64,000 nucleotides of DNA from contig JAZLJO010000013.1 in NCBI GenBank assembly GCA_045617905.1, positions 532 through 64,531 of the forward strand, in the 5' to 3' direction. This stretch comes from Candidatus Enterousia sp. Its GTDB lineage: Bacteria; Pseudomonadota; Alphaproteobacteria; Rs-D84. Shown here piece by piece: positions 41,599-62,576 of this stretch (position 1 is the stretch's first letter; every line of letters starts with the position of its first letter). A program made the position numbers and the translations under genes. Below the pieces are notes generated by a model that made no database searches, was not told where the DNA came from, and saw only the letters and a list, made by a program, of their open reading frames with translations.

Positions 41599-41689
41599 GG
41601 AGACGTCGCATAGTTGGTCTAGTGCGCTACATTGGAAATGTAGTATACCGGCAACGGTATCAAGGGTTCGAATCCCTTCGTCTCCGCCA
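41599..41689 (+). tRNA. tRNA-Ser(GGA)
   Basis: GGA anticodon, long variable arm, GCCA end. Confidence 0.95.
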
Positions 41690-41698
41690 CTAAAATTC

Positions 41699-41906
41699 AA
41701 CATCTCTGACAATGTTCAGAGATGTTCTTTTTTTGCCCGGTTCCCGGGGCTTTCTGTATATAAGGTTTCCAGTATATGCAAATGACAAAGCCAAATGTCC
41801 CAACATTTACCCATATGACATACCTTGCCAAAAATCCCGATGCCAGTTTAAGTATTTATAATCAATTTTTTACTATCTTGAACAAATCATTATCATTGAT
41901 TTTAAT
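41699..41906. repeat. Diverged direct repeat, copy 1 (includes relic of recombinase 3' end)
   Basis: Colinear with 47642-47850; minus strand reads IKINDNDLFKIVKN*. Confidence 0.7.
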
Positions 41907-42135
41907 TATTCAATATACTTTGTTTGAGCTCTCGGTCTGACTGTTTTTTATCTGATAAGGATATCTGTTTGGAACTTTTTGACAGATAAAATATGGTTCA
42001 TATCATGTTCTTCTTTATTTTTTTTATGTGAATTTTTTCTTGCGAAAAATACTATAAACTAATACGATTACAATGTTGATGTGTAATGTTTTCAAATGCA
42101 CGAAAAAACAAAAATCCAAAAACAAGGTTGCTAAA

Positions 42136-43680
42136 ATGAAAAGCCAAAAGAAAAATATTAAAAATCTCGGATATGAAAGCAATAAAAGTTTATATTGGGC
42201 AATAGGAACCGTATTAGTTTCTGAATTGTTGATGTTGATTATGAACGCTAATATTGTAACCATGTTTGTAACGGGGCTATTCTGTGCTGGTATAGGGGGA
42301 TTATTTGGTTACGATTTGACCAAACATACCTACAATAAATCTTGGTATCCAACTATTGGTATGTTAGGTACATTTGTTGGGATATTTATAGGACTTTATG
42401 GTTTAGATATTTCTAATGTTAATAAAGTTACAACAAGTTTATCAGAATTACTTAGCGGATTAAAACTGGCATTTATTACAAGTATTGTTGGGTTGATATT
42501 TTCTATTTTGCGTAAAGCTTGGGACTCTTTTGATTGGAATAAAATTGAAGAACTTGATACAGATATGGTGTTGCAATCAATCGATGAAAACACAAAGCAA
42601 ATAGATAATAATACGGCTATAGTCAATGAATTAGTTGCTCTGAAGACAGAATTCAAAAAGTTTGCTGTGAAGGTTTCAGAAACTGCAGCAGTCCAGTTTT
42701 CTAGTGCATTAAATGAAGTTGCAAGTGATCTTAACAATAAGTTGTCCGAACAATTTGGTTCTAACTTCAAGGCATTCGCTGGTTCTGTTGACAAGCTGGT
42801 CGATTGGCAAACAAAAAATAAAGAATATATGGAAAAATACACAAAGTATCTGACAGATTGTACAAATGCTTATAACGAAAAACTTGAACTCTTGGCAAAT
42901 TCTGCAGCCAGTGTTGAGAAAATTATGGCACAAACACAGCAACATATCACAGCCTTAAACTCATCTCTGAAAGAACTTGACTCATTGGGAGAACAGGCAC
43001 ATAAATTTATTCCTGAGATAAAGGCTGTAATTGCTGAAGCAGAAACAGAAATTAAAACAATTGGTGATACGAGTCAAGCTGTTGTGACTTCTGTTCAAGA
43101 AATAACAAAATCATCAGAAGAAGAATTACAGAAACTGCATGTTGAAATCAGAGATACTGTTATAGAGAATCTTGATGCAACGTCTGCGAAACTTATTGAT
43201 GGATTCAATGTTGTAATTGCTGAAGCAGAAACAGAAATTAAAACAATTGGTGATATGAGTCAAGCTGTTGTGACTTCTGTTCAAGAAATAACAAAATCAT
43301 CAGAAGAAGAATTACAGAAACTGCGTGTTGAAATTAAAGACGCTGTCATAGAGAATCTTAATAACACATCCTCTAAAATTGTTGATGGAATAAAAGATAT
43401 CTCTAAAAAGAACATCGAAGAAGTTCAAAAGGTGGCAACAAACACAGCCACTACGGTTGACAATATGGCAAAGATATTTGTTGAGGAGTCGGTTACCAAA
43501 TTACAAGGCGTTGTTGGTAGAATGGACAAACAATTGGGCGAAGCAGGCGGTTATATTGCAGGTGCATTAAGTAAAATGGGTGATGATTTATATTATTTGC
43601 ATAACAAGCTTGAAGACCAGAAAGAGCAGACAGAAAATCTTAAGCAGGAAACAAAAAAAATATCTAAAAAAGGTAAATAA
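42136..43680 (+). CDS. zorA: Zorya ZorA-like MotA/ExbB channel with long helical tail
   Basis: GMLGTFVGI and LLSGLKLAFITSIVG TM motifs, LSEQFGSNFK..LVDWQ, long coiled-coil tail. Confidence 0.85.
   Translation: MKSQKKNIKNLGYESNKSLYWAIGTVLVSELLMLIMNANIVTMFVTGLFCAGIGGLFGYDLTKHTYNKSWYPTIGMLGTFVGIFIGLYGLDISNVNKVTTSLSELLSGLKLAFITSIVGLIFSILRKAWDSFDWNKIEELDTDMVLQSIDENTKQIDNNTAIVNELVALKTEFKKFAVKVSETAAVQFSSALNEVASDLNNKLSEQFGSNFKAFAGSVDKLVDWQTKNKEYMEKYTKYLTDCTNAYNEKLELLANSAASVEKIMAQTQQHITALNSSLKELDSLGEQAHKFIPEIKAVIAEAETEIKTIGDTSQAVVTSVQEITKSSEEELQKLHVEIRDTVIENLDATSAKLIDGFNVVIAEAETEIKTIGDMSQAVVTSVQEITKSSEEELQKLRVEIKDAVIENLNNTSSKIVDGIKDISKKNIEEVQKVATNTATTVDNMAKIFVEESVTKLQGVVGRMDKQLGEAGGYIAGALSKMGDDLYYLHNKLEDQKEQTENLKQETKKISKKGK
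43026..43334 (+). repeat. Tandem duplication within zorA, 186-bp (62-aa) period
   Basis: 43026-43148 and 43212-43334 nearly identical. Confidence 0.92.
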
Positions 43681-43683
43681 TAA

Positions 43684-44379
43684 ATGTTTATAAAAACTCG
43701 TGATGACTCATCACACTTTATATCTTTATCTGACATTATGACCGCTCTTATGATGATATTCTTGTTTGTGTCCGTAGCAATTATTATGCAAATTCAAAAA
43801 CATAATGAAATCGTCACAAATATTCAGGCAAACTATAAAAAACAAAAAGAGATGTTGTACGCTGACCTACAAGCTGAATTCAAGGATGATATGTCTAAGT
43901 GGGGGGCTAAAATAAATGAAGAAACATTGTCTGTTTATTTTGCTGGGGATGATGTTAGGTTTGATACTGGGCAATCTGATGTAAAACCAGAGTTTAAAAC
44001 AACCTTAGCAGAATTCTTTCCACGTTATGTACAGCTTATAAAAAAACATAAAGATGCTATCCAAGAAGTTCGTATAGAAGGGTATACAGATTCAACAGGT
44101 AAGCTTGGACAAACCATAGAAGAAAGATACTTTTATAACATGAAACTTTCGCAGGATAGAACACGCAGTGTTTTGGAATACTGTCTAACGTTACCTAATT
44201 TCACTAAAGATGATTTTAACTATATGAAAGATTTTATAACCGCCAATGGGTTAAGTTTCTCAAGATACATTCGTGATTCTAAAGGACATGAGGACAAAGC
44301 TGCCTCAAGACGTGTTGAATTTAGAATTCTAACTAATGCAGAAGCGACCATCGAAAGCATTGTAAAGGAAATGAATTGA
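43684..44379 (+). CDS. zorB: Zorya ZorB-like MotB/OmpA protein
   Basis: ISLSDIMTALMMIFL TM with conserved Asp; IEGYTDS, NMKLSQDRTRSV, SRRVEF. Confidence 0.88.
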   Translation: MFIKTRDDSSHFISLSDIMTALMMIFLFVSVAIIMQIQKHNEIVTNIQANYKKQKEMLYADLQAEFKDDMSKWGAKINEETLSVYFAGDDVRFDTGQSDVKPEFKTTLAEFFPRYVQLIKKHKDAIQEVRIEGYTDSTGKLGQTIEERYFYNMKLSQDRTRSVLEYCLTLPNFTKDDFNYMKDFITANGLSFSRYIRDSKGHEDKAASRRVEFRILTNAEATIESIVKEMN

Positions 44380-45536
44380 AAATCGGATTAAAAGATACGG
44401 GAATTCATATCAATGATGTTCATCATTTAGATGACGCTGTTTGTGTATTGAAAAGCGTAGCAAACAAGTTAAATGCTCAACCTATCAAAATTCCAAAAAC
44501 GTTTTATGGAACGTTAGCAGAATTGGTTTCTGATGGGTTAATCACACCGCCTAGACTCGACGACAAAGGCGAGTTTATAAACACGCAGAGAGGCCATGTG
44601 CTGCGTGCTGCAAACGGAGAAATTGCGTACCTATATATACCAGATAAAGAAAATGCATATAAAAACCAAACAGATAGAAACAAGGTCCACATGTATTGGT
44701 GTAGAACTCTTGTTCAAATGTGGCAAGAAAACCATAAGGATCGATACTGGGGAACGACTGATGCCGAAGGGGTATTTGGTATGGAAAATGGTGCCAGAAT
44801 CAAGTTAAACGTTTGTCAGAATTGTTATCAATATATTGGAACATCAATATATGGCCCCTTAAATGATTTCGATTTTCAACGGTTTTCTGTTGATCATGCC
44901 AATAAAGGCAAGTTTTCGTATGGTAAAAAAACGTCCAACGAATCATACGTTTGGACGTGTTGTAAATGTGGAAAGACAATTCTTGATATAAATGAAGTAG
45001 AGATAAATAATTCGGAAACATATTGTTCTGATTGTTTTGATATAGAAAGTGTGTTTTTGCCGTTGGCAAAAGCAGAAAATATTTCTGATATTGATAATTG
45101 GGTTTCAAATACAAAAGATATCAATATTGTAGACCATAATGGGCAGAATGCACTTATGTATTTAGCTCAAAAGAATCCAAATGTTTCTCTAATACAAGCA
45201 ATGATTAAAAGATATCAATTTGATGTTAATGCAATAGACGAAAAAGGCAAAAATATTTTAATGTACTTGGTTGACCAACCAAAAACTAAAAACGAGGATC
45301 AACAATATAAAGCCTTATTACCTGTTATTAATATGTTAGCAAAACTTGGGGTAACTGTAAAGAGTCAGTCAGATAATGATCATAAAACAGCTATAGGATA
45401 TACTAAAAACTCGATTGTTCGTGATTATCTGTTATCTCAATATACTGCTGCGGGTGGGCATGTTCGTAGTAATAATCCGGTTAATACGGTATATGTAACA
45501 GATTCAAAAACAGGAATAATATCTCAACAGGAATGA
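44376..45536 (+). CDS. ZorE-like N-terminal region, Zn ribbon and ankyrin repeats
   Basis: KVHMYWCRTL..RY..LNVCQNC; CCKC...CSDC; DINIVDHNGQNALMY, DVNAIDEKGKNILMY; TTG start overlaps zorB stop. Confidence 0.65.
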   Translation: MKIGLKDTGIHINDVHHLDDAVCVLKSVANKLNAQPIKIPKTFYGTLAELVSDGLITPPRLDDKGEFINTQRGHVLRAANGEIAYLYIPDKENAYKNQTDRNKVHMYWCRTLVQMWQENHKDRYWGTTDAEGVFGMENGARIKLNVCQNCYQYIGTSIYGPLNDFDFQRFSVDHANKGKFSYGKKTSNESYVWTCCKCGKTILDINEVEINNSETYCSDCFDIESVFLPLAKAENISDIDNWVSNTKDINIVDHNGQNALMYLAQKNPNVSLIQAMIKRYQFDVNAIDEKGKNILMYLVDQPKTKNEDQQYKALLPVINMLAKLGVTVKSQSDNDHKTAIGYTKNSIVRDYLLSQYTAAGGHVRSNNPVNTVYVTDSKTGIISQQE

Positions 45537-45552: not shown

Positions 45553-47622
45553 ATGTCAAATTTAACAAAATCTCAACAAGAATTTGTAAACAGCTCTAGC
45601 AAATTTATTCGTTTACTTGCACCAGCAGGTTGTGGTAAAACATTTTCAATAATTGAAAAAATTAAGAGTATTTGTGCACATAATTCCAAAGATAAAATCA
45701 GTGTTTTTACTTTTACTCGTGGTGCTGCAGAAGAAATTCGTGAACGTTGCGATAATGATACATGTGTAACAGTAAATACATTAAATAGTTGGGGAAATAA
45801 TTATATAAAATCTAACGTATTAAAAAATGCTCAGATTATTTCGACACCGAAAGATAGAAAATTCTGTTTGTTAAATCACTTACAACCAATTTGGGATAAA
45901 CCTGAATACCGTCAAACCTTTGGTAAATTGTTTACAAGCCGTTCCAAAACAAGATACAGCGAAACATTCTTGGAAATGATGGACGAATTCAAAAATATAG
46001 GGTTTGTACACTCATTGTTTACAAAAGATGAAAAGGCAGACAAAATTACCTATGAAAAACACGTAAACTTTATTAAAGAAGTCGGTTTGCAACGTTACTA
46101 TGAAGCTTTGACAGAAATTCTTAAACATGCCATAGGTGTAATTTGTATAGATGAAGCACAGACAACCGATTTTATGGTCAAAACCTGGATTCCTTTTTGG
46201 AAAGACTGTTGTGATCAAATGCAAGCCGCTGGTTTATACACACTTGATGATCAAAAATATTTAGCAAACATCGCGTTGCTTAAAAAAGTTGAGAAACGTG
46301 AAAAGTGGAACGGTACTGCTAAAATTGATTACATATTTGTTGACGAGTTTCAAGACACTAGCCCGCTTGATTTGATGTTAATATCTAATTTACAGCAGTT
46401 AAATGATGCAGGTTTGGTAATCGTAGGTGATGATGACCAGGCTATCTACGAGTTTCGTGGTGCGACGCCATACTTTATATTGCATCCAGATAAAATATTC
46501 GGTCAATTATTTACAACATATATTTTGGACGAGAATTTCAGATCTCCTGCTAACATAGTTGAAAAATCCATGGATTTAATATCAAATAACAAAAACAGAG
46601 TAGAAAAAAGAGTGTCTGCACATAACACAACCGATTCTGCGGAAATAAAACTTTTAACCTATTCAACGCAAGAGGAAATGATAGATCATGTTATCCGAGA
46701 TATTAACGACACTGTAAATTCTAAAGGAGAAACAGTCGCTGTGTTATCTCGGTTGAAAGCCAGTCTTTTGCCATACCAGGTTCTATTAACCAAGGAATCT
46801 GTACCATATTGTGTTAGTGATGACTTGGCGTTCTTTTTGACTGGGGCTGCAGAAAGCCTTAATCGAGTCATGGAAATAAAAAAGAAAAAAACAGAACCAA
46901 CTCGTGCGGATTTAATAGAATTAGTCTGCTTAGACAGTAAAAACGAAATATATAAAACACAAAAAGATACATTGACAAGACTGTTTTTAGCAAACAATGT
47001 AAAAAAAACTAATATTGAAGATGCATTACGTGCCATAGGTGAAAAATATCCAAAACAGTTTCAAAATCTTTTCACAGACGCTTTTATTACACATTTTATG
47101 AATGCAATGGATAAGTTTTTAAAGGCGGATAATGTGTACAATACACTCGAATGCATGTTGCGTGATTTTCAAGGATTAAAACAAAACTACAGCAGATCAC
47201 TGGAAGACTTGTATTATAGAGATCCGCCTCTTGCCAGCTTGTTGGATTTTGCTTCTAAATATGGCGATGATTACGAAAGCTTCCTTGAAGACTTTAATGC
47301 TGCGATAGCAACTGCCAGCTTGTCCAAAGATTCAAATGATAGATTGTTTGATACAGAACCAGCACGTGTGTTCTTGTCCACAGCATTACGTGTAAAAGGT
47401 CAACAGTTTGATAAAGTCATCATCTTAAATGTTGATGATGGAACTTGGCCAAAGTCTCAAGCTCAAACGAATGATGATGCATATGAAGCAGAACGTAGAT
47501 TGTTTTACGTTGCTACAACAAGATCAAAGAAAACTTTGCATTTGTATCGAGGAAACGAATATCATAATGAGAGTACAACAATATCGCCTTTCGTTTTGGA
47601 AGGAAATTACAATAAAAAATAA
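45553..47622 (+). CDS. UvrD/Rep (SF1A) helicase
   Basis: APAGCGKT, FTRGAA, VDEFQD, VGDDDQAIYEFRGA, ENFRS, ERRLFYVATTR. Confidence 0.92.
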   Translation: MSNLTKSQQEFVNSSSKFIRLLAPAGCGKTFSIIEKIKSICAHNSKDKISVFTFTRGAAEEIRERCDNDTCVTVNTLNSWGNNYIKSNVLKNAQIISTPKDRKFCLLNHLQPIWDKPEYRQTFGKLFTSRSKTRYSETFLEMMDEFKNIGFVHSLFTKDEKADKITYEKHVNFIKEVGLQRYYEALTEILKHAIGVICIDEAQTTDFMVKTWIPFWKDCCDQMQAAGLYTLDDQKYLANIALLKKVEKREKWNGTAKIDYIFVDEFQDTSPLDLMLISNLQQLNDAGLVIVGDDDQAIYEFRGATPYFILHPDKIFGQLFTTYILDENFRSPANIVEKSMDLISNNKNRVEKRVSAHNTTDSAEIKLLTYSTQEEMIDHVIRDINDTVNSKGETVAVLSRLKASLLPYQVLLTKESVPYCVSDDLAFFLTGAAESLNRVMEIKKKKTEPTRADLIELVCLDSKNEIYKTQKDTLTRLFLANNVKKTNIEDALRAIGEKYPKQFQNLFTDAFITHFMNAMDKFLKADNVYNTLECMLRDFQGLKQNYSRSLEDLYYRDPPLASLLDFASKYGDDYESFLEDFNAAIATASLSKDSNDRLFDTEPARVFLSTALRVKGQQFDKVIILNVDDGTWPKSQAQTNDDAYEAERRLFYVATTRSKKTLHLYRGNEYHNESTTISPFVLEGNYNKK

Positions 47623-47641
47623 ATGTGAGGGTATAAGATTA

Positions 47642-47850
47642 AACATTTCTGACAATAGTTAGGGATGTTCTGTTTTGGCTAAAGTGCTGGATGGTAAGTA
47701 CGAGATTTTTGGTATGTATTATGATCTGATACAAACTTATTAAAAAATTCACTGAATATATACTTTGCATAAAATCATGATGCAAGGTTGAATATTTATA
47801 ATTGATTATTTCTAGCAATCTGAAACAAATCATTAACATTAATTTTTAAT
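47642..47850. repeat. Diverged direct repeat, copy 2
   Basis: Colinear with 41699-41906; overlaps 3' end of serine recombinase. Confidence 0.7.
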
Positions 47851-49385
47851 CGCCCAGACAAGATTTGATTTATCTTGTCTGGATTCATATATGCAATGTC
47901 CAGGTATCTATAAAATTGTCGTGGTGATGTATGTAGTTTTGCAATGGTTACGTCCACATTTCCATCTTGCTCGTATAACTCTTTGTATCGCCAAGCTGTG
48001 GCGAAAGCCTTGACTATTAGGTGGTTGTTATCGGTAATGCTTAGTACACCGTTTTTACCGTGGTCGTATACTGTGTTAACGTATTTCCGTAGAAACACTT
48101 TTTCTGTAATTGTTATACAGTTATCACCTGTGATATATTCCATCTGTTGAGCATTTTGATTCGCATAATTATCAGATACAAACAGCTGTAATTTTTGTGT
48201 GTCTGTAGTAATCGTATAAATTAGTTGTTCTTGAGAATATACGACTTTTTCAATCAAACATCGAATAAAAGTTCGTTTTTGTGCATATGACATTTCTGTT
48301 ATATTGATGCGTTTTAATGTGCTGGATATGTCTATTGGCAAGGCGGACATATTACTGTTCAGAAAATCTGTTACTGTCTTAATCACAATGTTATCAATCT
48401 GTGGTGCGGGCAGATAAAATCCCTTGGTTGCGTAATAATGCATTTTCTTTTTACCTTTGCCACTGGTCATTTGATTGAAAAATTTAGTACCTTTATGATT
48501 AAACAATTTTCCGGTTAATATATTTGGAACACGCGTACTCGTTGATTTGTTATTGGAATTATTAGCCAGTGCAACTTGCACGCGTTCAAATAATTCTGGG
48601 GACACAATCGGTTCATGTTCTCCTTTGGCAAATGTGCCTTCTTTTTTGTTTTCGATCATTCCAATATATATTTTATCGCGTAATATTCGATGCATACTCA
48701 TTTTACTAATCGGATTACCACCACGTATTTGTCGTTTTGCTGTCTCCCATCGTTTACCAAATATACCATTTTGTTTTGCATATTCAGTTAAATCATTCAC
48801 AGATTGCAATTCCAGATATTTTTCAAACAGATGTCGTATTTGTGTGGCTTCGGTTGGATTTACTACCAACTTCTTATTTACCAGGTCATACCCTAAACGT
48901 GGTGCACCACCCATCCATAGGCCTTTGGCCTTTGATGCACGGATTTTATCCCGAGCGCGTTCACTTGATACTTCACGTTCAAATTGGGCGAATGATAGCA
49001 ACATGTTCAATGTTAGTTTACCCATTGATGTACTGGTATCAAATGATTGGGTAATGGACACAAAATTAGCACCGTATTTTTCGAAATACTTCATCATATT
49101 GTGGAAATCCAGGATTGAGCGCGATAATCGGTCAACCTTATAAACAACCACGGTATTAACCAAGCCATGCGCCATATCATCTAGCATTTGCTTTAACGCT
49201 GGTCGTTCCATAGTTCCACCTGATATAGCCGCATCACTGTATGTTTTATAATATTGCCAGCCATTAAACGCCTGTGAAGCAATATAAGCCTTACATGCTT
49301 CTTCTTGGTTTTGCAAAGAATTAAACTCTTGGTCAAGCCCATGTTCTGTTGATTTACGGGTGTAAATTGCACACTTAATTGTCAT
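47796..49385 (-). CDS. Large serine recombinase
   Basis: CAIYTRKS, SGGTMERPAL, VYKVDRLSRS, FAQFERE, GEHEPIVS. Confidence 0.93.
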   Translation of the reverse strand: MTIKCAIYTRKSTEHGLDQEFNSLQNQEEACKAYIASQAFNGWQYYKTYSDAAISGGTMERPALKQMLDDMAHGLVNTVVVYKVDRLSRSILDFHNMMKYFEKYGANFVSITQSFDTSTSMGKLTLNMLLSFAQFEREVSSERARDKIRASKAKGLWMGGAPRLGYDLVNKKLVVNPTEATQIRHLFEKYLELQSVNDLTEYAKQNGIFGKRWETAKRQIRGGNPISKMSMHRILRDKIYIGMIENKKEGTFAKGEHEPIVSPELFERVQVALANNSNNKSTSTRVPNILTGKLFNHKGTKFFNQMTSGKGKKKMHYYATKGFYLPAPQIDNIVIKTVTDFLNSNMSALPIDISSTLKRINITEMSYAQKRTFIRCLIEKVVYSQEQLIYTITTDTQKLQLFVSDNYANQNAQQMEYITGDNCITITEKVFLRKYVNTVYDHGKNGVLSITDNNHLIVKAFATAWRYKELYEQDGNVDVTIAKLHTSPRQFYRYLDIAYMNPDKINQILSGRLKINVNDLFQIARNNQL

Positions 49386-49812
49386 TGTTTACCTTTTTAT
49401 TTAATCCGAAAAAATCAGGTCCAGACACCTTAGAGCCTGTAATATCTTTTGCTATTGCAGATAATGTTTTGTATTTCTTATCTAGGTATGTAAAAGTATC
49501 ATCATCATCATTTTTTATTACTTTATGTTCTACTCCTCTAAAAGTTTTTATTATTGTAAAACCTGTGGGGATGTTATATTTGTGCTTTGTTACTTTGTTT
49601 AGGCATATATCAGGATTTTCTTTGTATTTCTTTATTTTAAGCATATATTTTGCTTCTATTTTTAATTTTTGCCGATCGCATTGTATGTAATACCAAAGTG
49701 CTTTGGTTTGACGTTTATATTCTGAATCTGGAACATATTTATTCCAAAGTGCCGATCGATCTGAAAAAGGTAAATTTTGTAGTTCTTTATAGCTATTTGG
49801 TAACTTTATCAT
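49375..49812 (-). CDS. DUF2924-like protein
   Basis: FRGVEHKV, YKTLSAIAKDITG..VSGPDFFGL; coupled to recombinase. Confidence 0.8.
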   Translation of the reverse strand: MIKLPNSYKELQNLPFSDRSALWNKYVPDSEYKRQTKALWYYIQCDRQKLKIEAKYMLKIKKYKENPDICLNKVTKHKYNIPTGFTIIKTFRGVEHKVIKNDDDDTFTYLDKKYKTLSAIAKDITGSKVSGPDFFGLNKKVNNDN

Positions 49813-49841
49813 AATTTGCCCCTTTATTTATAACCGGTGTC

Positions 49842-49872
49842 ATTACCGCTCTAAATAGCACAGAAGTCAAGT
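49842..49872 (-). promoter_or_regulatory. Repeated promoter motif, copy 1
   Basis: ACTTGACTTCTG-N5-TTTAGAGCGGTAAT; also at 50801-50831. Confidence 0.6.
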
Positions 49873-49937
49873 CATTAAATATTTATTGTCACATGTATTT
49901 TGCATATGTATAATACAAGATATATTTGGAGGTTTAT

Positions 49938-50573
49938 ATGACAAAAGGACTGGTGTATTTTGCGAGAAATTCTGCTTTTCAACATTTGACAAAAATAGGA
50001 AAAACCTCAAAATTAAATGTTGAAGAAAGAGGGTTGACGGCTAGTAATGTGCCGGAAGATTTTGATTATTTGGCGGTATTGCATTGTGATGATATGGATT
50101 CTATAGAATGCAAAATACACGAACAATTTAAAATGTTTCGTCATTATTCGGCGACAGGTAGAAAAACTGAATTTTTTTGGAGTGGTTGTATAGATGATGC
50201 GATTAAATATGCTAGAGATTTGAAAGGTGTGAGTGATATTACTGAAACCGAAACTGAAGAAATACCTGTAATAGTAAACGGAGAACAGCACACAGCTCGT
50301 CGTCCAAATACTACCTTTAAAATGATTGGTTTGGAAAAAGGGTGTAAAATTTTGTTAGATAACGATCCTAACAAAGTGGCAATTGTAGAAGATGATAAGA
50401 ATTTAATATCGTATAAAGACCAAGCGCCTCAACCCATTTCTAATGTTGTAAATCAGATCAAAGCTCCAGGAAGATATAACGGCTTTTTGTATTTTTATTA
50501 TAAAGGCAAACGATTGTTTGATATGCGGCCAGATATGCAGCAACCTGATGAATTGTGTTTATTTAACGATTAA
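49938..50573 (+). CDS. T5orf172/GIY-YIG-like domain protein
   Basis: GLVYF..KIGKT..R, SNVPEDF, IECKIH, TEFF. Confidence 0.75.
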   Translation: MTKGLVYFARNSAFQHLTKIGKTSKLNVEERGLTASNVPEDFDYLAVLHCDDMDSIECKIHEQFKMFRHYSATGRKTEFFWSGCIDDAIKYARDLKGVSDITETETEEIPVIVNGEQHTARRPNTTFKMIGLEKGCKILLDNDPNKVAIVEDDKNLISYKDQAPQPISNVVNQIKAPGRYNGFLYFYYKGKRLFDMRPDMQQPDELCLFND

Positions 50574-50574
50574 A

Positions 50575-50775
50575 TTAAACGCCTTCTTCTATATCGAACC
50601 ATGTTGATATTTTGATAACGACAGGGGTTCTTTTTGAACGTTTTAGTGTCTTTGCATACTCTGATAATTGTGCGGATAAATCACAGTTATTGAGTGCTTT
50701 AATGCATTCGACAATAAAGTCCGTATTAGTATGGTAATTATAAGTTTTTATAGTGATTTCAGGATATTTGATCAT
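50575..50775 (-). CDS. Small hypothetical protein
   Basis: AAGGAG RBS and repeated promoter motif upstream. Confidence 0.6.
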   Translation of the reverse strand: MIKYPEITIKTYNYHTNTDFIVECIKALNNCDLSAQLSEYAKTLKRSKRTPVVIKISTWFDIEEGV

Positions 50776-50800
50776 AATAACTCCTTTTTAAGGTTGTTTA

Positions 50801-50831
50801 ATTACCGCTCTAAAGGGGCCAGAAGTCAAGT
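50801..50831 (-). promoter_or_regulatory. Repeated promoter motif, copy 2
   Basis: 27 of 31 bases match 49842-49872. Confidence 0.6.
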
Positions 50832-50950
50832 TTTTATTTGTATAAATATTTAATATTGTGATATTGCAAAAACAATAACGCTATATGTAATATTTTAATA
50901 TTGTATTTTTTTTATTGACTTTTGTTTCGGGTTTGGTTATATTATATGAC

Positions 50951-51514
50951 ATGAAATATAAAAAATTAGAGTCTTTTTCGACAATAAAATCCGGATACGC
51001 CTTTCGTGGCGCCATTATGGATGAAACGGATGGGAAAACGATTGTAATTCAACCAAAGGATGTAATCTCTGGGTTTGACGGTGATTTTGTCCGTATCAAG
51101 TCGGCTTCTGTTTCTGAGCGTCATATTTTGGAACGCGGTTCTGTTCTTGTGACTAATCGTGGGGCGTTTTGTGCGTGTGTATTTAATGAGCGTTTCAAGG
51201 CGATCACAACAAGTGGGGTTTTCGTTATAATGTTGCAACATGATTCTGGTATAACACCAGAGTATCTTGCTCTGTATATCAATTCTGATGTTGGGCAACG
51301 TCAGATTGCGTCGAAACAAGAATCGATGACTGTGCCGGCTTTAACTATTAAGCAGATGCAAGAATTGGAAATACCGATTATTTCAATAGAAAAGCAAGAT
51401 TTGTTATCAAAAGCGTTTAACCTATCACAACGTTGCAAGGGTATTGTTTTAGAAATACAAAAACAAAATAAAAGTTTAATAAATCAAGTAATCAAAGGGG
51501 CAATAGATGGCTAA
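50951..51514 (+). CDS. Single-TRD HsdS-like protein
   Basis: SGYAFRG, PEYLALYINS, LEIPII..KQ; half the length of HsdS. Confidence 0.75.
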   Translation: MKYKKLESFSTIKSGYAFRGAIMDETDGKTIVIQPKDVISGFDGDFVRIKSASVSERHILERGSVLVTNRGAFCACVFNERFKAITTSGVFVIMLQHDSGITPEYLALYINSDVGQRQIASKQESMTVPALTIKQMQELEIPIISIEKQDLLSKAFNLSQRCKGIVLEIQKQNKSLINQVIKGAIDG

Positions 51515-53009
51515 AATTACACAGGATGAATTGAATAAATTATTGTGGGCGGCGGCCGACTCTGCACGGGGTACGGTTGATGGCGGCGTGTTCAAAGATT
51601 ATGTCTTGGCGCTGTTGTTCTATAAATATATGTCGGATATGCATCGTGTCGAGCGGGCAAAATTGGTCGAACGTTATGGCGATGATAAAGAACGTATAGA
51701 AATGCGTTTGAAAAATGCCCGTTTTGTGATGCCGGATGGTGCTAGCTTTTACGATGTTTACGCACAGCAGTCTGCCGATAATATTGGCGAAGTATTAAAC
51801 GTTGCATTGCAACAAATTGAAGATGCCAACGACGAAAAACTGCACGATATATTTACTGTTGATTTTAATTCTCAGGCAATTCTTGGTCCAACGGCTCAAC
51901 GTAACAAAATGATACGTGACCTATTAAATGATTTTAATAAGGCTGATTTAAGCGAAGTAGATGACGATATTCTTGGAAATGCATACATGTACATGATCGA
52001 GAAGTTCGGAACCGAAGCCGGTAAAAAGGCTGGGGAGTTCTTTTCGCCACGTACTTTGTGTAAATTGGTTGCTAAATTGGCAGAGCCCAAACCTGGTAAT
52101 CGTATATGTGATCCAACGTGCGGTTCTGGCGGGTTGTTATTACTGGCCGGTGCCGAAATAGAAAAAACAAGATCCAAGGATTATGCATTATATGGCCAAG
52201 AAAAAACAGGTGCAACATACAATTTGGCGCGTATGAACATGTTTTTGCATGGACTGGATTCGGCGCGTATTGAATGGGGTGATACGCTAAATAACCCTTT
52301 GTTGCGCGATGGTAATGGGTTGATGAAATTTGATGTTGTGGTTGCCAATCCGCCATTTTCATTGGATAAATGGGGCGATAAATCGCTAGAAAATGATAAA
52401 TACAATCGTTTCTGGCGCGGTATGCCCCCGGCCAGCAAGGGCGATTATGCATTTATATCCCACATGGTTGAAACGGCCAAAGCCAAAGAAGGACGCGTTG
52501 CAGTGATTGTTCCGCACGGTGTTTTATTCCGTGGTTCATCCGAAGGCCGTATTCGCAAAGCGCTTATAGAAGAAAATATTTTGGATGCGGTTATTGGTTT
52601 GCCGTCGGGACTGTTTCAGACAACTGGCATCCCGGTTGCAGTGTTGATTTTCGACAGAAGTCGTGAGCCAGGTGGTATCAACGAAAACCGTAAAAATGTT
52701 TTGTTTATTGATGCCAGCCGTGAATTTACAGCCGGCAAGAATCAAAATACATTGTCGGACGAAAATATTGCAAAAATCGTGGATACATATAAAAAACGCA
52801 GTGAAATTGAAAAATATTCACACGTGGCGACATTTGATGAAATCAAGGAAAACGATTTCAATCTGAATATTCCACGCTATGTTGATACATTCGAAGAAGA
52901 AGCACCTGTGGACATTCCGGCAACCCGCAAACGCATCGCCGAACTAACCGCCGAACTGTCCAAAACCACCGCAGAAATGGAAAAATATTTGAAAGAATTG
53001 GGGTTGTAA
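51507..53009 (+). CDS. hsdM: Type I RM methyltransferase subunit
   Basis: AGEFFSP, DPTCGSGG, ANPPFS, FNLNIPRYVD. Confidence 0.95.
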   Translation: MAKITQDELNKLLWAAADSARGTVDGGVFKDYVLALLFYKYMSDMHRVERAKLVERYGDDKERIEMRLKNARFVMPDGASFYDVYAQQSADNIGEVLNVALQQIEDANDEKLHDIFTVDFNSQAILGPTAQRNKMIRDLLNDFNKADLSEVDDDILGNAYMYMIEKFGTEAGKKAGEFFSPRTLCKLVAKLAEPKPGNRICDPTCGSGGLLLLAGAEIEKTRSKDYALYGQEKTGATYNLARMNMFLHGLDSARIEWGDTLNNPLLRDGNGLMKFDVVVANPPFSLDKWGDKSLENDKYNRFWRGMPPASKGDYAFISHMVETAKAKEGRVAVIVPHGVLFRGSSEGRIRKALIEENILDAVIGLPSGLFQTTGIPVAVLIFDRSREPGGINENRKNVLFIDASREFTAGKNQNTLSDENIAKIVDTYKKRSEIEKYSHVATFDEIKENDFNLNIPRYVDTFEEEAPVDIPATRKRIAELTAELSKTTAEMEKYLKELGL

Positions 53010-53019
53010 AGGATGAAAA

Positions 53020-53604
53020 ATGGCCTGTTTTAAAAATGATGCTTGGAAAAATTTTGATAATATTAAGTCTAAAAAATTTATTTGTTGGAATTGCAACAAT
53101 ATGGTTGCTAGTCAATACGGATATATGACAAAAAATGGATTAAGCCATATTTATATTTGCCCACATTGTAGAGCACCTCATGTTGAGGATGAAAACAATG
53201 TAGAAATCCCCGGTGTTTTGCCGGGTAAATCAATACAGAGATTGCCAAAAGAAATAGAAACAGTGTATGAAGAAACACGAAATTGTATTGCTGCTGGTGC
53301 ATACACTGCTACCGTTATGATTTTGCGTAAAATTTTGATGAATTTGGCTGTCGAAGAAGGCGCCAAGGAAGGCGATAGTTTTGCACATTATGTTGATTAT
53401 TTGTGCGAGAATGGTTTTGTGCATAGACGACAGCACGAACAAGCAAAAAGAATTCAACGTCTTGGCAATGATGTAAACCATAAAATTGAATCACGAACCA
53501 AAGAAGATGCGTTAGAATTATTAAATTTGGTTCAATTGATTTTGATAAATAATTATGAACAAGCGGATGAACTCGTTAAAAAGGAACCTGTAGTAGTGAT
53601 GTAA
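53020..53604 (+). CDS. DUF4145 (HEPN-like) protein with N-terminal Zn ribbon
   Basis: CWNC/CPHC, YEETRNC..AYTA..LRK, RLGNDVNH. Confidence 0.75.
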   Translation: MACFKNDAWKNFDNIKSKKFICWNCNNMVASQYGYMTKNGLSHIYICPHCRAPHVEDENNVEIPGVLPGKSIQRLPKEIETVYEETRNCIAAGAYTATVMILRKILMNLAVEEGAKEGDSFAHYVDYLCENGFVHRRQHEQAKRIQRLGNDVNHKIESRTKEDALELLNLVQLILINNYEQADELVKKEPVVVM

Positions 53605-53616
53605 AGAGGTATAGAA

Positions 53617-54186
53617 ATGGAAAGAATTGTAGAAGTTTTGTTGTCTGGTGCCGTTGGGGCATTGTTGGTATGGGTATTGCAGTTTTTTACTGAGCGTCGT
53701 CGTAGACGTTATGAACGTAGGTTATATATTTTGCGTTCATTGATTGCTAATTCGGCTAATATTGTATCAGTTGATTTTGTGTCCGCATTTAATATGATAT
53801 TGATTGAATATAATTCAAAGTCCGTTGTTCGTGAGTGGCATGGCAAATTTATGGAACACGTCACCCAAAGACCAGCATCAGATGAAGAAGAAGCAAAAAT
53901 CAGAAATAAAAAGTTTGAATCGATTTTGATAAAGTTAATCGAAGAGATAGCAAAATCTATACACATAAGAATAGAACAGTTAGATTTGGCAGATAAAATT
54001 TATTGGCCACGTGGCTTCGCGGATGTTGCTGAAAAACAACAAAAATTAACAGATTTATTGATAGATAACCACGGATATTGGAATAATTTATTAGAACAAG
54101 CAGTCAATCAAGATAGACAGATTTTGTTGGAAACAAAAAAGATCCCTGAAACAGCAAATAAGAGAAAAAAAGATGCAAATGAATAA
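53617..54186 (+). CDS. Hypothetical protein with N-terminal TM helix (DUF6680-like)
   Basis: TM followed by Arg run, FVSAFNMI..EY, IYWPRG. Confidence 0.55.
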   Translation: MERIVEVLLSGAVGALLVWVLQFFTERRRRRYERRLYILRSLIANSANIVSVDFVSAFNMILIEYNSKSVVREWHGKFMEHVTQRPASDEEEAKIRNKKFESILIKLIEEIAKSIHIRIEQLDLADKIYWPRGFADVAEKQQKLTDLLIDNHGYWNNLLEQAVNQDRQILLETKKIPETANKRKKDANE

Positions 54187-55378
54187 TGTGCCGTTTGACT
54201 GGAAAATGAATAAATTAGGTCACGTTGCCGATGTTTTTGATGGGACGCATCAGACACCGGAATATGTTGACCATGGTATAAAATTTATCAGTGCTGAAGA
54301 TATTTCTGATCCCAGTGCCTCCACAAAATATATAACACATCAAGCATTTGAAAATAATTTTAAAATACGCCCTAACAAAAACGATATTTTTATGACACGC
54401 ATAGGCCGTATAGGAATACCCTTTTTGTTAAAAACCGATGAAGATTTTGCTTATTATGTTACATTGGCATTGTTAAAATTAAAACGTGACGTTGTCCCAG
54501 AATATTTATTTTACTTCATTCAAGGTAATTATTTTCAATTTGAACTATGGAAACGCACATTACACGTAGCTTTCCCAGAAAAGATAAATAAAGACGAAAT
54601 CGGAAAGTGTCTTGTTTTATATCCCGATAATATCACAGAACAGAAAAAGATTGCGGAGATATTGGGGACGTGGGATCGGGCGATTGAAGAATTGACAGAT
54701 CTGATTACTGAAAAGAAGGAGTTAAAACGCGGTTTGATGCAACGATTGTTGACGGGTGCCCAACGCCTGCCAGGTTTTACAAAACCGTGGAAAAATAAAA
54801 AAATTGGCGATATAACACATATCGCAACGGCGGTCAGCAAATCACAATATATAAAAGAAACTGGACCATATCTTATTGTTGATATGGGAGCTGTTTCAAA
54901 TGAGGCGACACTTATAGCAAAAAAACAAACAGATTATGAAGGTGACTTTTTAGCATGTGGTGATCTTATAATGCCAAAAGACGACATTGGTGGGGGAAAT
55001 ATCATAGGAAAAACGGTGGTTGTCGATTGTAATAATAAATATATTCTTGGAGACCATGTTTTTAAAATACACGTGATGGGTGAATATGATGCTAAATTTA
55101 TATCGAATGTAATCAATTCATTTGATGTGAATAAATATATGCGAAGAATGTCTACGGGCTCAGCCCAGCTTGGGTTGGCAAAACGAGATGTGGAAAAGTG
55201 TGTGTTGTTTGTGCCAACGGAACTTGCAGAGCAAAAAGCTATTGCTGACGTATTGTCTAAGGCGGATTCAGAAATTGATTTATTAAATCAGCAACTGGAT
55301 CTACTGAAAGAGCAAAAACGCGGCCTGATGCAGAAATTATTAACTGGCGAAATACGTGTAAAGGTGGATAAAAAATAA
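54173..55378 (+). CDS. hsdS: Type I RM specificity subunit
   Basis: Two TRDs, EQKKIAEIL/EQKAIADVL, KRGLMQ.LLTG repeats. Confidence 0.93.
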   Translation: MQMNNVPFDWKMNKLGHVADVFDGTHQTPEYVDHGIKFISAEDISDPSASTKYITHQAFENNFKIRPNKNDIFMTRIGRIGIPFLLKTDEDFAYYVTLALLKLKRDVVPEYLFYFIQGNYFQFELWKRTLHVAFPEKINKDEIGKCLVLYPDNITEQKKIAEILGTWDRAIEELTDLITEKKELKRGLMQRLLTGAQRLPGFTKPWKNKKIGDITHIATAVSKSQYIKETGPYLIVDMGAVSNEATLIAKKQTDYEGDFLACGDLIMPKDDIGGGNIIGKTVVVDCNNKYILGDHVFKIHVMGEYDAKFISNVINSFDVNKYMRRMSTGSAQLGLAKRDVEKCVLFVPTELAEQKAIADVLSKADSEIDLLNQQLDLLKEQKRGLMQKLLTGEIRVKVDKK

Positions 55379-55430
55379 CTCTAGGGTGATAACGTTACCA
55401 GGACGTCATAGCACTACCTAGAGAATTTCG
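55370..55430 (-). ncRNA. Candidate small hairpin RNA divergent from Abi-like gene
   Basis: CTCTAGG/CCTAGAG stem with inner stems, T-tract after it, consensus promoter directly upstream. Confidence 0.55.
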
Positions 55431-55435
55431 AGGTG

Positions 55436-55464
55436 ATTATAACAAAAAAGCGAAAAAATGTCAA
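55436..55464 (-). promoter_or_regulatory. Consensus sigma70 promoter
   Basis: TTGACA-17 bp-TATAAT on minus strand. Confidence 0.8.
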
Positions 55465-55514
55465 GCGAATATTTAAGACGCTAAAAGATAAAATTATGTA
55501 AAGGGGATTCTAAA

Positions 55515-56183
55515 ATGAATTTATTACAACTAAAAGAACACTTTTCAGAAGAACGTATGTATTCTTATGAAGAATTGGCTTTGCAGCGTGGATTGTCTGC
55601 AGAAGCAGCTATAGACCTGTATAAGTTAAATATATTATTATGTGAAGAACTTTATTCTTTGATCTGTTGTTTAGAAGTTTGTCTTAGAAACAAGATTCAC
55701 GATAAATTGACAGAAACTTTTGGTACAGAAGATTGGTTTTCTTGCGAGTGTGTAAAATGGGGCGATAGGCATTCAAAAGATATAGAAAATACGGTAGCAG
55801 AAATAAAGAAACGTAAACATATTGATGTTGTACGACCGGATCAAATGGTGTGTGGACTAAATTTTGGTTTTTGGTGCCATGTTTTTGATAATTGCTATGA
55901 AAATTGTCTGTGGACAGCAGGTTTGAATAAAATTTTCCCTCATTATATGGGGCGCCCAAACAGAAAACATATTGCTCAATCTTTAACCCAATTACTAAAA
56001 ATAAGAAACAGAATAGCGCATTTCGAAATAATTATCAAAGATGAAAAAGAATTGTTGGCATCTCACAATAAGATGGTAGAAGTAATAAATTGGTTTTCGC
56101 CCGAAATATATTTATGGTTTAAAAGCTTTAATAATTTTGAAAAACTATATAACAATCTGCAAAATAATACTTTTGACGAATAG
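55515..56183 (+). CDS. Abi-like (AbiD/AbiF, Abi_2) HEPN protein
   Basis: FSEER, LY..N, LEVCLRN, LNFGFW, RNRIAH (RxxxxH). Confidence 0.85.
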   Translation: MNLLQLKEHFSEERMYSYEELALQRGLSAEAAIDLYKLNILLCEELYSLICCLEVCLRNKIHDKLTETFGTEDWFSCECVKWGDRHSKDIENTVAEIKKRKHIDVVRPDQMVCGLNFGFWCHVFDNCYENCLWTAGLNKIFPHYMGRPNRKHIAQSLTQLLKIRNRIAHFEIIIKDEKELLASHNKMVEVINWFSPEIYLWFKSFNNFEKLYNNLQNNTFDE

Positions 56184-56193
56184 GGGGTTGATT

Positions 56194-59100
56194 ATGACAA
56201 ATATTGATAATCCATTTTATTTACCAGATTTTGATGAGGCATCTAGCAGCCAAATCCCGGCTATTATTCAGTTAATCAATATGGGCTATTCATATATTGG
56301 ACGGCACGAAGTTGAAAAGATGCGTGAATCTCATGGACAATATATTTTGCGAGATATCGCATTTGATGCATTACGTAACATAAATGATCCTGCAAAAATA
56401 TCTGATGCCAGTATCCGTGAAGCCATTTTAGATCTTGAAAAGATAAAGATGGACGATGGTATTATCAAAGCATCTGAAACTTTGTTTTTTAATTTGCTGG
56501 CCGGTGTTGGTGTGTCTGAAATAATAGAAGGGAAAAAAACATCGCCACAGTTGCGTTTCATTGATTGGGAACATCCAGAAAACAACAAGTTTCATATTGT
56601 TCCGGAATTTGAAATATCAGAAGAACAAAATCGCCGTCCAGATATTGTGTTGTTTGTCAACGGAATTCCATTCGCAGTAATAGAAAACAAAAAAGCGTCT
56701 GTTCCTGTGGACGAGGCTGTTAAACAAATGATACGTAACCAATCTGGCAACCAAACACCAAAATTCTTTATTTATCCACAGATCCTAATAGCGACAAATA
56801 TCAATGAATTAAAATATGGGACCATGTTGACCCCTCGTGAATTTTATTCTGTATGGAAAGAAAAATATAAAAGCCCAACATTTAACGATGATGTTTTTAA
56901 TTCTGTAAACAGAATGTTACCGGATGAACAAATAAAACAGATATCTGCTGACTTATTGCGAAATAATTATGTTCAGGGTTTGAAAGAAAATTTAACAGCA
57001 CAAGATTATAGTATTTACAGTTTATTAGAACCGAAACGTATGTTAGATATTGTGCGTAATTTTGTGATTTATGACAATGGAATAAAAAAATTACCACGAT
57101 ATCAACAATATTTTGCAATAAAAAAGACTTTAGAACAGATAGAAAAACAAGACAATAAAGGCAAAAGACACGGTGGGGTTATTTGGCATACTCAGGGCTC
57201 AGGGAAATCGTTGACTATGGTTATGTTGACCAAGAATTTGATCGAGCACATTCAAAACCCACGCATCATAGTTGTAACAGATAGAACAGATCTTGATATA
57301 CAAATACGTGATACATTCAAAGCATGTAATATCAAAGTTGGTGTTCAACAGGCAACATCTTGTAAAGATCTTATAAATAAAATCAAATCAAAAACAACAG
57401 ATGTTATAACAACATTGGTACAAAAGTTTGAACCAACAAAATTCAAGGATACAGACAATAATATATTTATTCTTATTGATGAGGCGCATCGTAGCCAAGG
57501 TGGTGAAGATAATGGCAATATGAACATGGTATTACCAAATGCTTGTCAAATTGCTTTTACAGGTACACCCTTAATGACGAAGAAAAAACGTACAACAGAA
57601 ACAAAATTTGGTGGCATTATTGATTCCTATACAATATCAGAGGCAGAGGCAGATGGGGCTATATTGCCATTGATTTATCAAGGACGCTTTGTAGATCAAG
57701 AAATAAATCCAATTGTGAATAAATTCTATGAGCGTATATCACAACCAATGTCAGAATCTGCACGTAAAGATTTTGAAAAAAAATGTGTGTCCAAATCAGT
57801 ATTAGAAGAAACTTCTCAACGAATAGATATGATCGCAACAGATGTTTATGATCATTATACAAAATATTTCCAAGGAACCGGATTAAAAGGACAATTGGTT
57901 GCTCCGTCTAAATATGCAGCAGTTATGTTCCAAAATGCATTAGAAATGCTTGGTAATATAAAAACTGCAGTTGTTATTTCTGATTCACAAACAAGCGAAT
58001 CCGATGAAGATAAATTGCCAGAACAAAAAGCAGTGGTTGAACGTTATTTGCAAGAACAAAAACGAAAATATGGTTCATTAGAATCTCGTGAAAAACAAAT
58101 TATTCAAGATTATAAGAAGAATCCAGAAGGTATAGAACTATTGATCGTTGTTGATAAATTGTTAACAGGATTTGATGCACCACGCGATACTGTTTTGTAT
58201 TTAGCCAAGCAATTACAAGATCATAATTTGTTACAGGCAATTGCCAGGGTTAATCGTCTGTTTGATGGAGACAAAGACAAACAGGCAAAAACAAACGGTC
58301 TGATTGTAGATTATTCTAAAAATGCTAAGAATTTAAAAAATGCATTGGAATTATTCTCTAACTATGATCCAAGTGATATAAATCGTGCTTTATTAGATAC
58401 AGACGAACAAATTAAAATGTTAGAAAGTTTGTATCAAAAATTATATAGTGCTTTTGCAGACATCAAGGATATTCATAATACTGATGCTTATGTTCAAAAG
58501 TTATTAGATCCAAGTAATGAAGAATTAAAAAAAGAATTTTATGAAAATGTAAATAATTTTATAAAAACATTTTCTTCGTGCTCAAGTTTATATGATTTTT
58601 ATGAAAAATTTGATGAAGAAAAACTAAAACGTTATAAATTAGATTTAAAACGTTTTGTAGAAATAAAAAAGACAGCCCAACTTGCAAATGGTGAAACTGT
58701 CGATTTTTCAAAATATAAAGACCAGTTACGTAAATTATTAGATAAATATGTAACAGCTAATGATGTAGAAGTGCTATCTCAAGAAATCAGTTTGACGGAT
58801 ATGAGAGAATTTAACCAATTTATAGAAGATGAAAAGCAGGGATTGTCAAAACGTTCTCAAGCCAAAGCAATTGCCGCACAAACTAGCCGAGTTATAAGCG
58901 AACGTTATAAACAAGACGAAGTATTTTATAAGAATTTTTCAGACAGAATTAATAAATTGTTAGAAGAATTGCGAACTGCAAAAGCAGAAGACATTGCCGC
59001 ACTATTTGATCAAGTAAAAGATATTCAAGTCCAAGTTGAAAATTATGAAGACTCAGATATCCCAGAAGCTTTACATAATCAAAAACACACACATGCATTT

Positions 59101-61318: not shown

Positions 61319-61386
61319 AAAATAGCTGTACTCATGTGAATGAATATATTCTATTTAGGGGCTTTTTAGCAAAAGGTTAATGAAAA

Positions 61387-62547: not shown

Positions 62548-62576
62548 TGCCAGATATTATCCAAGGAATAAGAAAA

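Follow-up and report, generated by a model that had tools for sequence, protein, structure and literature searches.

Zorya defence systems comprise three subtypes, each of which is defined by its soluble effectors (PMC11946911). In the system described there, ZorA and ZorB form a 5:2 peptidoglycan-anchored, ion-driven motor, and the tail of ZorA is needed to recruit ZorC and ZorD, the latter being the helicase-nuclease that ZorAB recruits in type I systems (PMC11946911). On infection, ZorAB directs the nickase ZorE to the membrane (PMC11890865), and a 2026 preprint (PMC13192584), from which we take the name DUF8245 for the N-terminal domain of ZorE, describes a cooperation of ZorE with the helicase-nuclease DruE through shared DNA intermediates. 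Here we analyzed a 64,000-nt stretch (referred to as the window) of contig JAZLJO010000013.1 in the assembly GCA_045617905.1 of a Candidatus Enterousia sp., a gut bacterium whose small genome has a size of 1.01 Mb and is 97% complete. The window contains a co-oriented and tightly spaced operon of four genes in the order zorA2, zorB2, a fusion gene, and a uvrD-like helicase gene. The third of these genes is a single open reading frame (ORF; 44376–45536, + strand) that starts with TTG, overlaps the stop codon of zorB by 4 nt and encodes a protein of 386 amino acids (aa), the fusion protein of this study. We infer, with a probability of roughly 0.55, that this protein is a nuclease-dead ZorE adaptor, which would couple ZorAB to the UvrD-like helicase as the effector of a four-gene Zorya system derived from type II.

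The locus shares features with several described systems. Like the type II ZorE of Escherichia coli, an HNH nickase recruited by ZorAB, the fusion protein is encoded after zorA2 and zorB2. Its N-terminal domain is homologous and shares the His/Cys3 zinc site, and the four zinc cysteines of the HNH domain are present as well. Unlike E. coli ZorE, it has no catalytic His-His loop and flanking residues, and its C-terminus is an ankyrin domain where E. coli ZorE carries a nuclease-like extension. Similar to type I Zorya with its DNA-binding protein ZorC and its SNF2-type helicase-nuclease ZorD, the locus combines ZorAB with a non-catalytic soluble partner and a helicase, but ZorC is missing and the helicase belongs to superfamily 1 (SF1; UvrD-like) instead of SNF2. 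A ZorE-type protein and a helicase acting on shared DNA intermediates are also found in the synergy of Druantia III with Zorya II (PMC13192584). In that case, two separate systems lie on one island, ZorE is active, and the preprint's account of the synergy mentions no stable complex (PMC13192584), whereas the window encodes the helicase within the Zorya operon and its ZorE is catalytically dead. Like GajB, the UvrD-like partner of the nuclease GajA in Gabija systems, the helicase is encoded in a defence operon, and GajB profiles match it. In contrast to Gabija, neither the proteins of the operon nor the two genes downstream of it gave a match to GajA or an OLD-family nuclease, and the GajB match reflects general UvrD-family similarity. 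The locus is a new variant built from type II Zorya parts, as its effector carries no HNH endonuclease and stays below the ZorE equivalog cut-off. We found no description of an ankyrin-fused or nuclease-less Zorya variant in the literature, where the supplements of PMC13192584 might list such forms.

A preliminary description of the window, made from the letters alone, had likened the N-terminal half of the protein to ZorE because of the pattern H..WC.TL..M...RY...L.VC.NC. All residues of this pattern are present (H105, W108, C109, T111, L112, M115, R123, Y124, L144, V146, C147, N149, and C150), and the likeness held up in profile searches. Residues 73–171 match the PADLOC ZorE2 profiles (best E 6.5e-14, profile positions 61–173 of 283), and the NCBIfam ZorE model NF041791 matches the same region (E 3.4e-8) with 32.7 bits, which does not reach its 600-bit whole-protein cut-off. 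A tblastn search with the first 225 residues against 72,556 plasmids returned four records, all of them E. coli genes annotated as zorE, with 30% identity over residues 73–154. The zinc ligands H105, C109, C147, and C150 align with H90, C94, C136, and C139 of E. coli ZorE and are invariant in all 32 rows of our alignment. According to PMC13192584, the substitution H90A abolishes defence by E. coli ZorE, and Y109 of that protein is predicted to face the DNA; its counterpart here, Y124, is a tyrosine in eight of the nine rows of the alignment with the E. coli protein and a phenylalanine in one canonical ZorE. With the model of the N-terminal part, Foldseek retrieved nothing from the PDB at E 0.001 or better. 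Together, the sequence matches indicate that the N-terminal part of the fusion protein is derived from ZorE. The Pfam family PF26739, precomputed on homologues, may be the same domain as DUF8245.

The preliminary description had also proposed that the HNH core was lost while a zinc ribbon was retained, and had read the latter from WTCCKCG and YCSDC. These segments occupy residues 193–199 and 216–220, with 18 residues between C198 and C217, and alignment to the ZorE family in E. coli numbering confirmed both parts of the proposal. All 13 canonical ZorEs in the 32-row alignment carry C..C..L.xHH.NG..N..C..CH. In the 13 ankyrin-fused proteins, the four HNH cysteines align without exception (C195, C198, C217, and C220 in the window), the His-His columns are gaps, and an 18-residue segment preceding the first CxxC is absent as well. 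Positions Y189, H226, and H253 of E. coli ZorE fall in gaps of the window protein, K231 is replaced by I205, N234/H235 by V208/E209, and H247 by F221. N238 aligns with N212, a position that is not conserved within the subfamily. Like H90A, each of the substitutions Y189F, H226A, and K231A abolishes E. coli ZorE defence (PMC13192584), and H90 alone among these four residues has a counterpart here. Both zinc sites, H105/C109/C147/C150 and C195/C198/C217/C220, are invariant in all 12 subfamily members down to 28% identity. The protein thus retains the structural CxxC...CxxC zinc site of the HNH superfamily and lacks its catalytic His and metal-binding Asn/His. The ZorE carrying an HNH endonuclease that defines the type II effector is not found, the ZorE match being limited to the N-terminal domain. 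In a model of residues 1–230 (mean predicted local distance difference test (pLDDT) 85.0, predicted template modelling score (pTM) 0.74), the zinc ribbon consists of strands 191–194, 208–211, and 214–217 followed by a helix from residue 218. A wide VIA-align search with residues 175–230 listed HNH nucleases (Cap5, T4 endonuclease VII, ZRANB3, and Cas9 HNH domains), and the structure searches were not decisive. As judged from the alignment, the fusion protein can no longer act as an HNH nuclease, because the His-His loop is deleted and Y189, H226, K231, H247, and H253, which E. coli ZorE needs according to PMC13192584, are gapped or replaced.

It might still cleave DNA through a non-canonical site, formed by an acidic pair before the second Cys pair or by DUF8245 itself, which is a domain without assigned function. 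When read by eye, an acidic/amide pair [D/E/N][D/E] at residues 207–208 does recur in the zinc-ribbon loop of the subfamily. However, a conserved His, Asn, or other general-base candidate between the Cys pairs is missing from all 13 fusions, and E. coli ZorE depends on its HNH residues for defence (PMC13192584). We consider a surviving nuclease activity of this kind highly improbable.

The ankyrin module that was said to follow the zinc ribbon is supported by sequence and by structure prediction. A phmmer search against PDB sequences matched residues 222–294 to designed ankyrin proteins (E 2.3e-11), and the score of Pfam Ank_2 (E 1.7e-5, 25.8 bits) lies just below the 27.3-bit cut-off. In the full-length AlphaFold model (mean pLDDT 84.0, pTM 0.63), which was built from 12 aligned sequences, the C-terminal part matched ankyrin domains with Foldseek (E ~1e-5, probability 1.00), and the best local matches superimposed with a root-mean-square deviation of ~3–3.5 Å over 130–145 columns. 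The region contains tandem helix-turn-helix repeats of about 33 residues, with approximately four helix pairs in the model and two repeats recognizable by sequence. Model confidence is low for the last 26 residues. This tail (residues 361–386, 45456–45533) contains the motif Y-x-x-D-x-x-x-G followed by acidic residues. The motif is common to the 31–38%-identical fusions P0015, L034, and L035, is absent from P0007, P0008, and P0011, and may be a short docking motif.

Relatives of the fusion protein are rare. Eight were found among 5.8 billion clustered proteins, the window's own protein included, and an exhaustive HMMER scan with residues 1–225 against 1.84 billion representatives returned 26 proteins at E 0.001 or better. 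The fetched representatives comprised five full-length ankyrin fusions of 346–387 aa (P0008, P0010, P0011, P0012, and P0016), a further fusion that is N-terminally truncated (P0015, 303 aa), and three DUF8245-only proteins of 169–183 aa; the remainder were canonical HNH ZorEs. A metagenome scan and a genome-contig scan added one close relative each. Viral contigs contained no relative, phage records gave no match, and the best score in the ESM Atlas (0.76) was below the useful range. The closest named relative locus stems from a metagenome-assembled genome of the Alphaproteobacteria. The profile of the fusion (E 1e-5 or better) found matches in 19 of the 328 genomes of the order to which the source genome belongs; in many of these it is the ankyrin part alone that matches, and four encode full-length fusions. 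Twelve sequences, the most distant of them 28% identical, share the fusion architecture. Among 400 other genomes sampled from the class, a single DUF8245 match at E 1e-12 or better was obtained (L059, G358:C23:7188-7562). It contains three in-frame TAA codons and may be a pseudogene, or TAA is possibly read differently in this organism.

A maximum-likelihood tree was calculated from the DUF8245 columns (32 rows, 147 columns) and rooted at its midpoint, a root that is not independently established. P0004, which is 87% identical to the window protein, was outside this alignment and tree, as were P0014, P0017, P0025, P0027, P0030, P0033, and P0034 (fragments, short forms, and one protein of 1675 aa); P0018 was among the aligned rows. 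The 13 fusions all grouped with four of the six short DUF8245-only proteins in one clade with a support of 96/99 and a long stem; within it, monophyly of the fusions received weak branch support (45/81). Because canonical HNH ZorEs flank the fusion clade on both sides of the midpoint-rooted tree, the loss of the HNH site is most simply read as derived, and a loss of HNH with a gain of ankyrin repeats appears the likelier direction of change.

Three pairwise comparisons with orthologues of 82–88% identity yielded ratios of nonsynonymous to synonymous substitution rates (dN/dS) of 0.05–0.06 for the whole fusion gene, 0.03–0.04 for DUF8245, 0.02–0.07 for the zinc ribbon, and 0.05–0.07 for the ankyrin part; dS was ~0.9–2.4 and thus near saturation, so that these values are approximate. 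The ankyrin part is the fastest-evolving folded domain, with 78–82% identity compared to 85–97% for DUF8245 and the zinc ribbon. Based on these low ratios, all three domains are under strong purifying selection, and the gene is not decaying. This bears on the possibility that the protein is a leftover, either a decaying ZorE or a dominant-negative brake that silences ZorAB, and that the operon is not an active defence system. The sole catalytic module of ZorE has been destroyed, gene decay is common in small genomes such as the 1.01-Mb genome studied here, and G358, outside the order, carries the above-mentioned DUF8245 match with its stop codons. In contrast, dN/dS is low in every domain of the fusion including the zinc-ribbon remnant, the 13 aligned fusions contain no frameshifts or stops, both zinc sites are invariant, and zorA, zorB, and the motifs of the helicase are intact. 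A non-functional or merely regulatory role is therefore improbable.

The two motor genes have the features expected of type II Zorya, a MotA-like ZorA with a long cytoplasmic tail and a MotB-like ZorB with a peptidoglycan-binding OmpA domain. ZorA matches PADLOC ZorA2 (E 2.8e-35) and Pfam MotA_ExbB (E 1.9e-6), and its NCBIfam ZorA2 score of 81.5 bits is far below the 700-bit equivalog cut-off. ZorB matches PADLOC ZorB2 (E 2.5e-82) and Pfam OmpA (E 1.7e-9) and reaches 179.7 bits with NCBIfam ZorB2 (cut-off 400). The dN/dS of zorB against its orthologues is 0.014–0.024. The region encoding the ZorA tail contains a tandem duplication of 186 bp (62 aa) at 43026–43389 (2.0 copies, 90% match), owing to which ZorA has 535 aa here compared to 474 aa in L001 and 452 aa in L008, two orthologous loci of 82–88% identity. 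Since the length of the ZorA tail is thought to matter for signalling (PMC11946911), the duplication would represent a natural tail-length polymorphism.

The helicase encoded after the fusion matches Pfam UvrD-helicase (E 4.9e-32) and UvrD_C (E 9.9e-29), Rep (E 1e-25) and PcrA (E 1.5e-25) in the PDB, and the GajB profiles of PADLOC (E 3.3e-43); the NCBIfam PcrA, Rep, and UvrD profiles match equally well. Its motifs GxGKT (residues 26–30) and DEFQD (264–268) are invariant in an alignment of 31 sequences. DNA context was available for five fusion loci, namely the window, L001 (= the L036 contig), the metagenome contig L008, L034, and L035. In each of them, an orthologous helicase (61–96% identity) directly adjoins the Zorya genes, in three loci beside the fusion gene and in two beside zorA. 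The window, L001/L036, and L008 share the order zorA-zorB-fusion-helicase on one strand with gaps of 3–16 nt between fusion and helicase, and these gaps together with a single terminator after the helicase gene suggest that the four genes are co-transcribed. In L034 and L035, where the fusions are 38% identical to that of the window, the helicase gene (61% identity) is divergent, 154 nt from zorA, and a WYL/WCX protein is encoded after the fusion. Of the order's 328 genomes, 10 have a helicase orthologue (E 1e-120 or better), including all four genomes with a full-length fusion. The same-strand loci keep the four genes together in three different flanks: rpoZ/tRNA-Ser and a serine integrase in the window, FtsK-like/WYL-UDG and Dcm-AIPR-DUF4420 genes in L036, and housekeeping genes in L008. 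The idea that the helicase gene is part of the adjoining serine-recombinase element was rejected for this reason, as two of these flanks contain no recombinase among the scanned ORFs. For P0008, a 46%-identical fusion, and P0037, a 63%-identical helicase, the longest NCBI contig measures 28,475 nt in both cases, which suggests that they are encoded on one contig. In L054 (6498–10511) and L056 (8207–12225), where Zorya genes are missing from the vicinity, helicase orthologues of 54–56% identity lie beside large serine recombinases. The window helicase is likewise paired with a recombinase, and the helicase may also travel with integrative elements.

A second arrangement of similar parts was found in three loci of the same genus (L037, 7790–14335; L038, 8720–14508; L041, 7090–13064), which we refer to as split sister loci. 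All three encode on one strand a DrmD-like SNF2 helicase (917–953 aa), a stand-alone ankyrin protein (190–205 aa; Ank_2 E 4e-23 to 2e-30), a short ZorA2 (364–404 aa), ZorB2, and a DUF8245-only protein (169–216 aa). Between the helicase and ankyrin genes there is either no gap (0 nt) or an overlap of 16 nt. Like ZorD of type I systems, the sister helicases are of the SNF2 type and match ZorD profiles (~1e-39); unlike ZorD, they match DrmD far better (PADLOC E 1e-177 to 1e-179), and no nuclease domain was found in them or in the window helicase. The DUF8245-only proteins of L037 and L041 fall into the well-supported fusion clade, and that of L038 was outside the tree sample. Ankyrin repeats, a nuclease-free DUF8245, and a helicase hence recur with ZorAB in two layouts and with two helicase superfamilies. 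The canonical locus L039 of the same genus (zorA-zorB-zorE with HNH) has no adjoining ORF of helicase size, its flanking ORFs not having been run through Pfam. Further observations concern these loci. For the ankyrin proteins of the sister loci, PADLOC returned the candidate PDC-M72A (E 2e-21 to 5e-27). Directly upstream of the SNF2 helicase, L037 encodes an orphan canonical ZorE with an intact HNH site (13571–14335, 254 aa, PADLOC ZorE2 E 2.1e-49), and thus pairs live and nuclease-free ZorE-type proteins with a single ZorAB. In L004 (896–1231, = L039 6917–7252), zorE shares the 4 nt at its stop codon with an ORF for a Cys-rich protein of 111 aa that contains two CxxC pairs; PADLOC gave no match for this protein, which was not compared with Pfam.

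Neither the helicase nor the split sister architecture had been part of the preliminary description, which had proposed a sensor or adaptor role. We infer such a role as well, and it is strengthened by the gene context, that is, by the helicase partner and the split sister loci. In the adaptor model, the peptidoglycan-anchored ZorAB motor would sense a phage attack on the envelope and signal via the ZorA tail, as in characterized Zorya systems. The DUF8245 part would retain the coupling of ZorE to ZorAB and/or DNA, and the helicase would be the most likely partner to dock on the ankyrin repeats. Driven by ATP, the helicase would then take over the role of the nickase as effector enzyme and act on phage DNA or replication intermediates, alone or by feeding host nucleases. 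A helicase on its own could strip replication proteins, expose single-stranded DNA to host nucleases, or drain nucleoside triphosphates. Even within this adaptor-plus-helicase scheme, we would rather bet against a direct contact between the ankyrin domain and the helicase; a complex prediction for the helicase and fusion residues 186–386 scored 0.01 against a mark of 0.32 and provides no evidence either way.

In an alternative scenario, the target of the ankyrin domain is a phage or host protein, which it senses or traps, and the helicase gene has an accessory or defence function of its own and happens to share the island. Helicase orthologues occur without Zorya in six of the ten helicase genomes, a large serine recombinase lies beside the helicase in three of the ten helicase loci, that of the window included, and the fast evolution of the ankyrin part would fit an arms-race interface. 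On the other hand, the helicase is adjacent to Zorya genes in all five fusion loci although it is found in so few genomes of the order, the short gaps and the single terminator suggest co-transcription, the four genes are not separated in any of the three flanking contexts, and the ankyrin gene of the sister loci has a helicase gene from another superfamily as its immediate neighbour. We therefore regard this scenario as unlikely, albeit clearly less so than a decaying gene or a hidden nuclease site. The adaptor model has to contend with several further points. The six genomes in question (helicase identity 53–58%) lack a fusion-family match at E 1e-5 or better, and there the helicase lies near rho/ssb, beside serine recombinases, or alone. 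The five context loci represent only two independent lineages, a third being P0008/P0037 with its unverified co-location. Compared with unrelated ankyrin proteins, those of the sister loci show no greater similarity to the ankyrin part of the fusion (E 1e-6 to 1e-9 in both cases), so that the fused and split forms may have gained ankyrin repeats independently. For DUF8245, both ZorA binding and DNA binding are conceivable roles, also in E. coli ZorE. Finally, the operon encodes no recognizable nuclease by which a phage would be stopped.

The adaptor model can be extended to the locus and its split sisters together, which would then constitute a fourth kind of Zorya. Here, the signal of ZorAB would reach a helicase by way of an ankyrin scaffold and a DUF8245 adaptor that lacks a nuclease, and defence would need no dedicated nuclease, the helicase being UvrD-like where the ankyrin domain is fused and SNF2/DrmD-like where it is separate. 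This joint interpretation is tentative, and we consider it doubtful at present.

The features of the operon and its borders are compiled in Table 1. The promoter-like site is a consensus match only, and the number of such sites in the region is not above that in shuffled sequences. Imperfect direct repeats of ~46 bp bracket the four-gene cassette (41599–41737 including tRNA-Ser, and 47634–47680), the left copy beginning right after tRNA-Ser(GGA), and their hairpin cores are identical at 23 of 28 positions. The genome contains only these two close copies and one site with three mismatches on another contig, and no copies were found at the orthologous locus L001. Judging from this arrangement, the cassette between the repeats looks like an insertion at a tRNA hotspot. 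Downstream, a defence island (47796–63833) contains a large serine integrase and DUF2924 (minus strand) and a PDC-S57-like gene. It also includes a type I restriction–modification system (half-size hsdS, hsdM, full hsdS, and hsdR), in which PD-T7-4-like and AbiD/PD-T4-5-like genes are embedded, followed by UzuA-like and SoFic-like genes.

Table 1 Features of the Zorya-derived operon and its borders (positions refer to the window).
Feature	Positions	Strand	Remarks
tRNA-Ser(GGA)	41599..41689	+	ARAGORN; directly left of cassette
Direct repeat, left copy (~46 bp, imperfect; terminator-like hairpin inside)	41699..41726	+	
Promoter-like site: TTGACA, 16-nt spacer, TATCAT; 11/12 matches	41979..42006	+	67 nt upstream of zorA
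zorA2-like gene, 535 aa: MotA-like channel, long coiled-coil tail	42073..43680	+	PADLOC, Pfam
zorB2 gene, 231 aa: MotB-like, OmpA-type peptidoglycan-binding domain	43684..44379	+	PADLOC, Pfam
Fusion residues 1–185: ZorE N-terminal domain (DUF8245), zinc site H105/C109/C147/C150	44376..44930	+	
Fusion residues 186–225: putative HNH remnant, 4-Cys zinc ribbon C195/C198/C217/C220, His-His loop deleted	44931..45050	+	
Fusion residues 226–360: ankyrin-repeat domain	45051..45455	+	
Fusion residues 361–386 and stop codon: low-confidence C-terminal tail, modelled as small beta-hairpin	45456..45536	+	
UvrD/Rep/PcrA-like SF1 helicase, 689 aa, ATPase motifs intact	45553..47622	+	starts 16 nt after fusion gene
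Direct repeat, right copy = terminator-like hairpin	47642..47669	+	20 nt past helicase stop codon

As the PADLOC profiles ZorA2, ZorB2, and ZorE2 all match, an annotation by profiles would probably name the locus ‘Zorya type II’ and its effector an ‘HNH endonuclease’, the latter wrongly. In addition, the phylogenetic survey of ZorE described in PMC13192584 kept only variants with a recognizable endonuclease domain, and forms like the fusion would have been set aside for this reason. Nuclease-less forms of ZorE evidently exist in RefSeq. The fusion protein can be regarded as a natural separation-of-function allele of ZorE, in which the N-terminal domain and both zinc sites are kept and the nuclease is exchanged for a docking module and a helicase. 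It makes three questions testable, which are the function of DUF8245 alone, Zorya protection without DNA cutting, and the modularity of Zorya effectors. If the fused and split loci do form such a fourth kind, ZorE-type effectors would all couple to ZorAB through DUF8245, a universal module on which effector domains could be swapped. Our results suggest that a Zorya variant may work without its usual nuclease.

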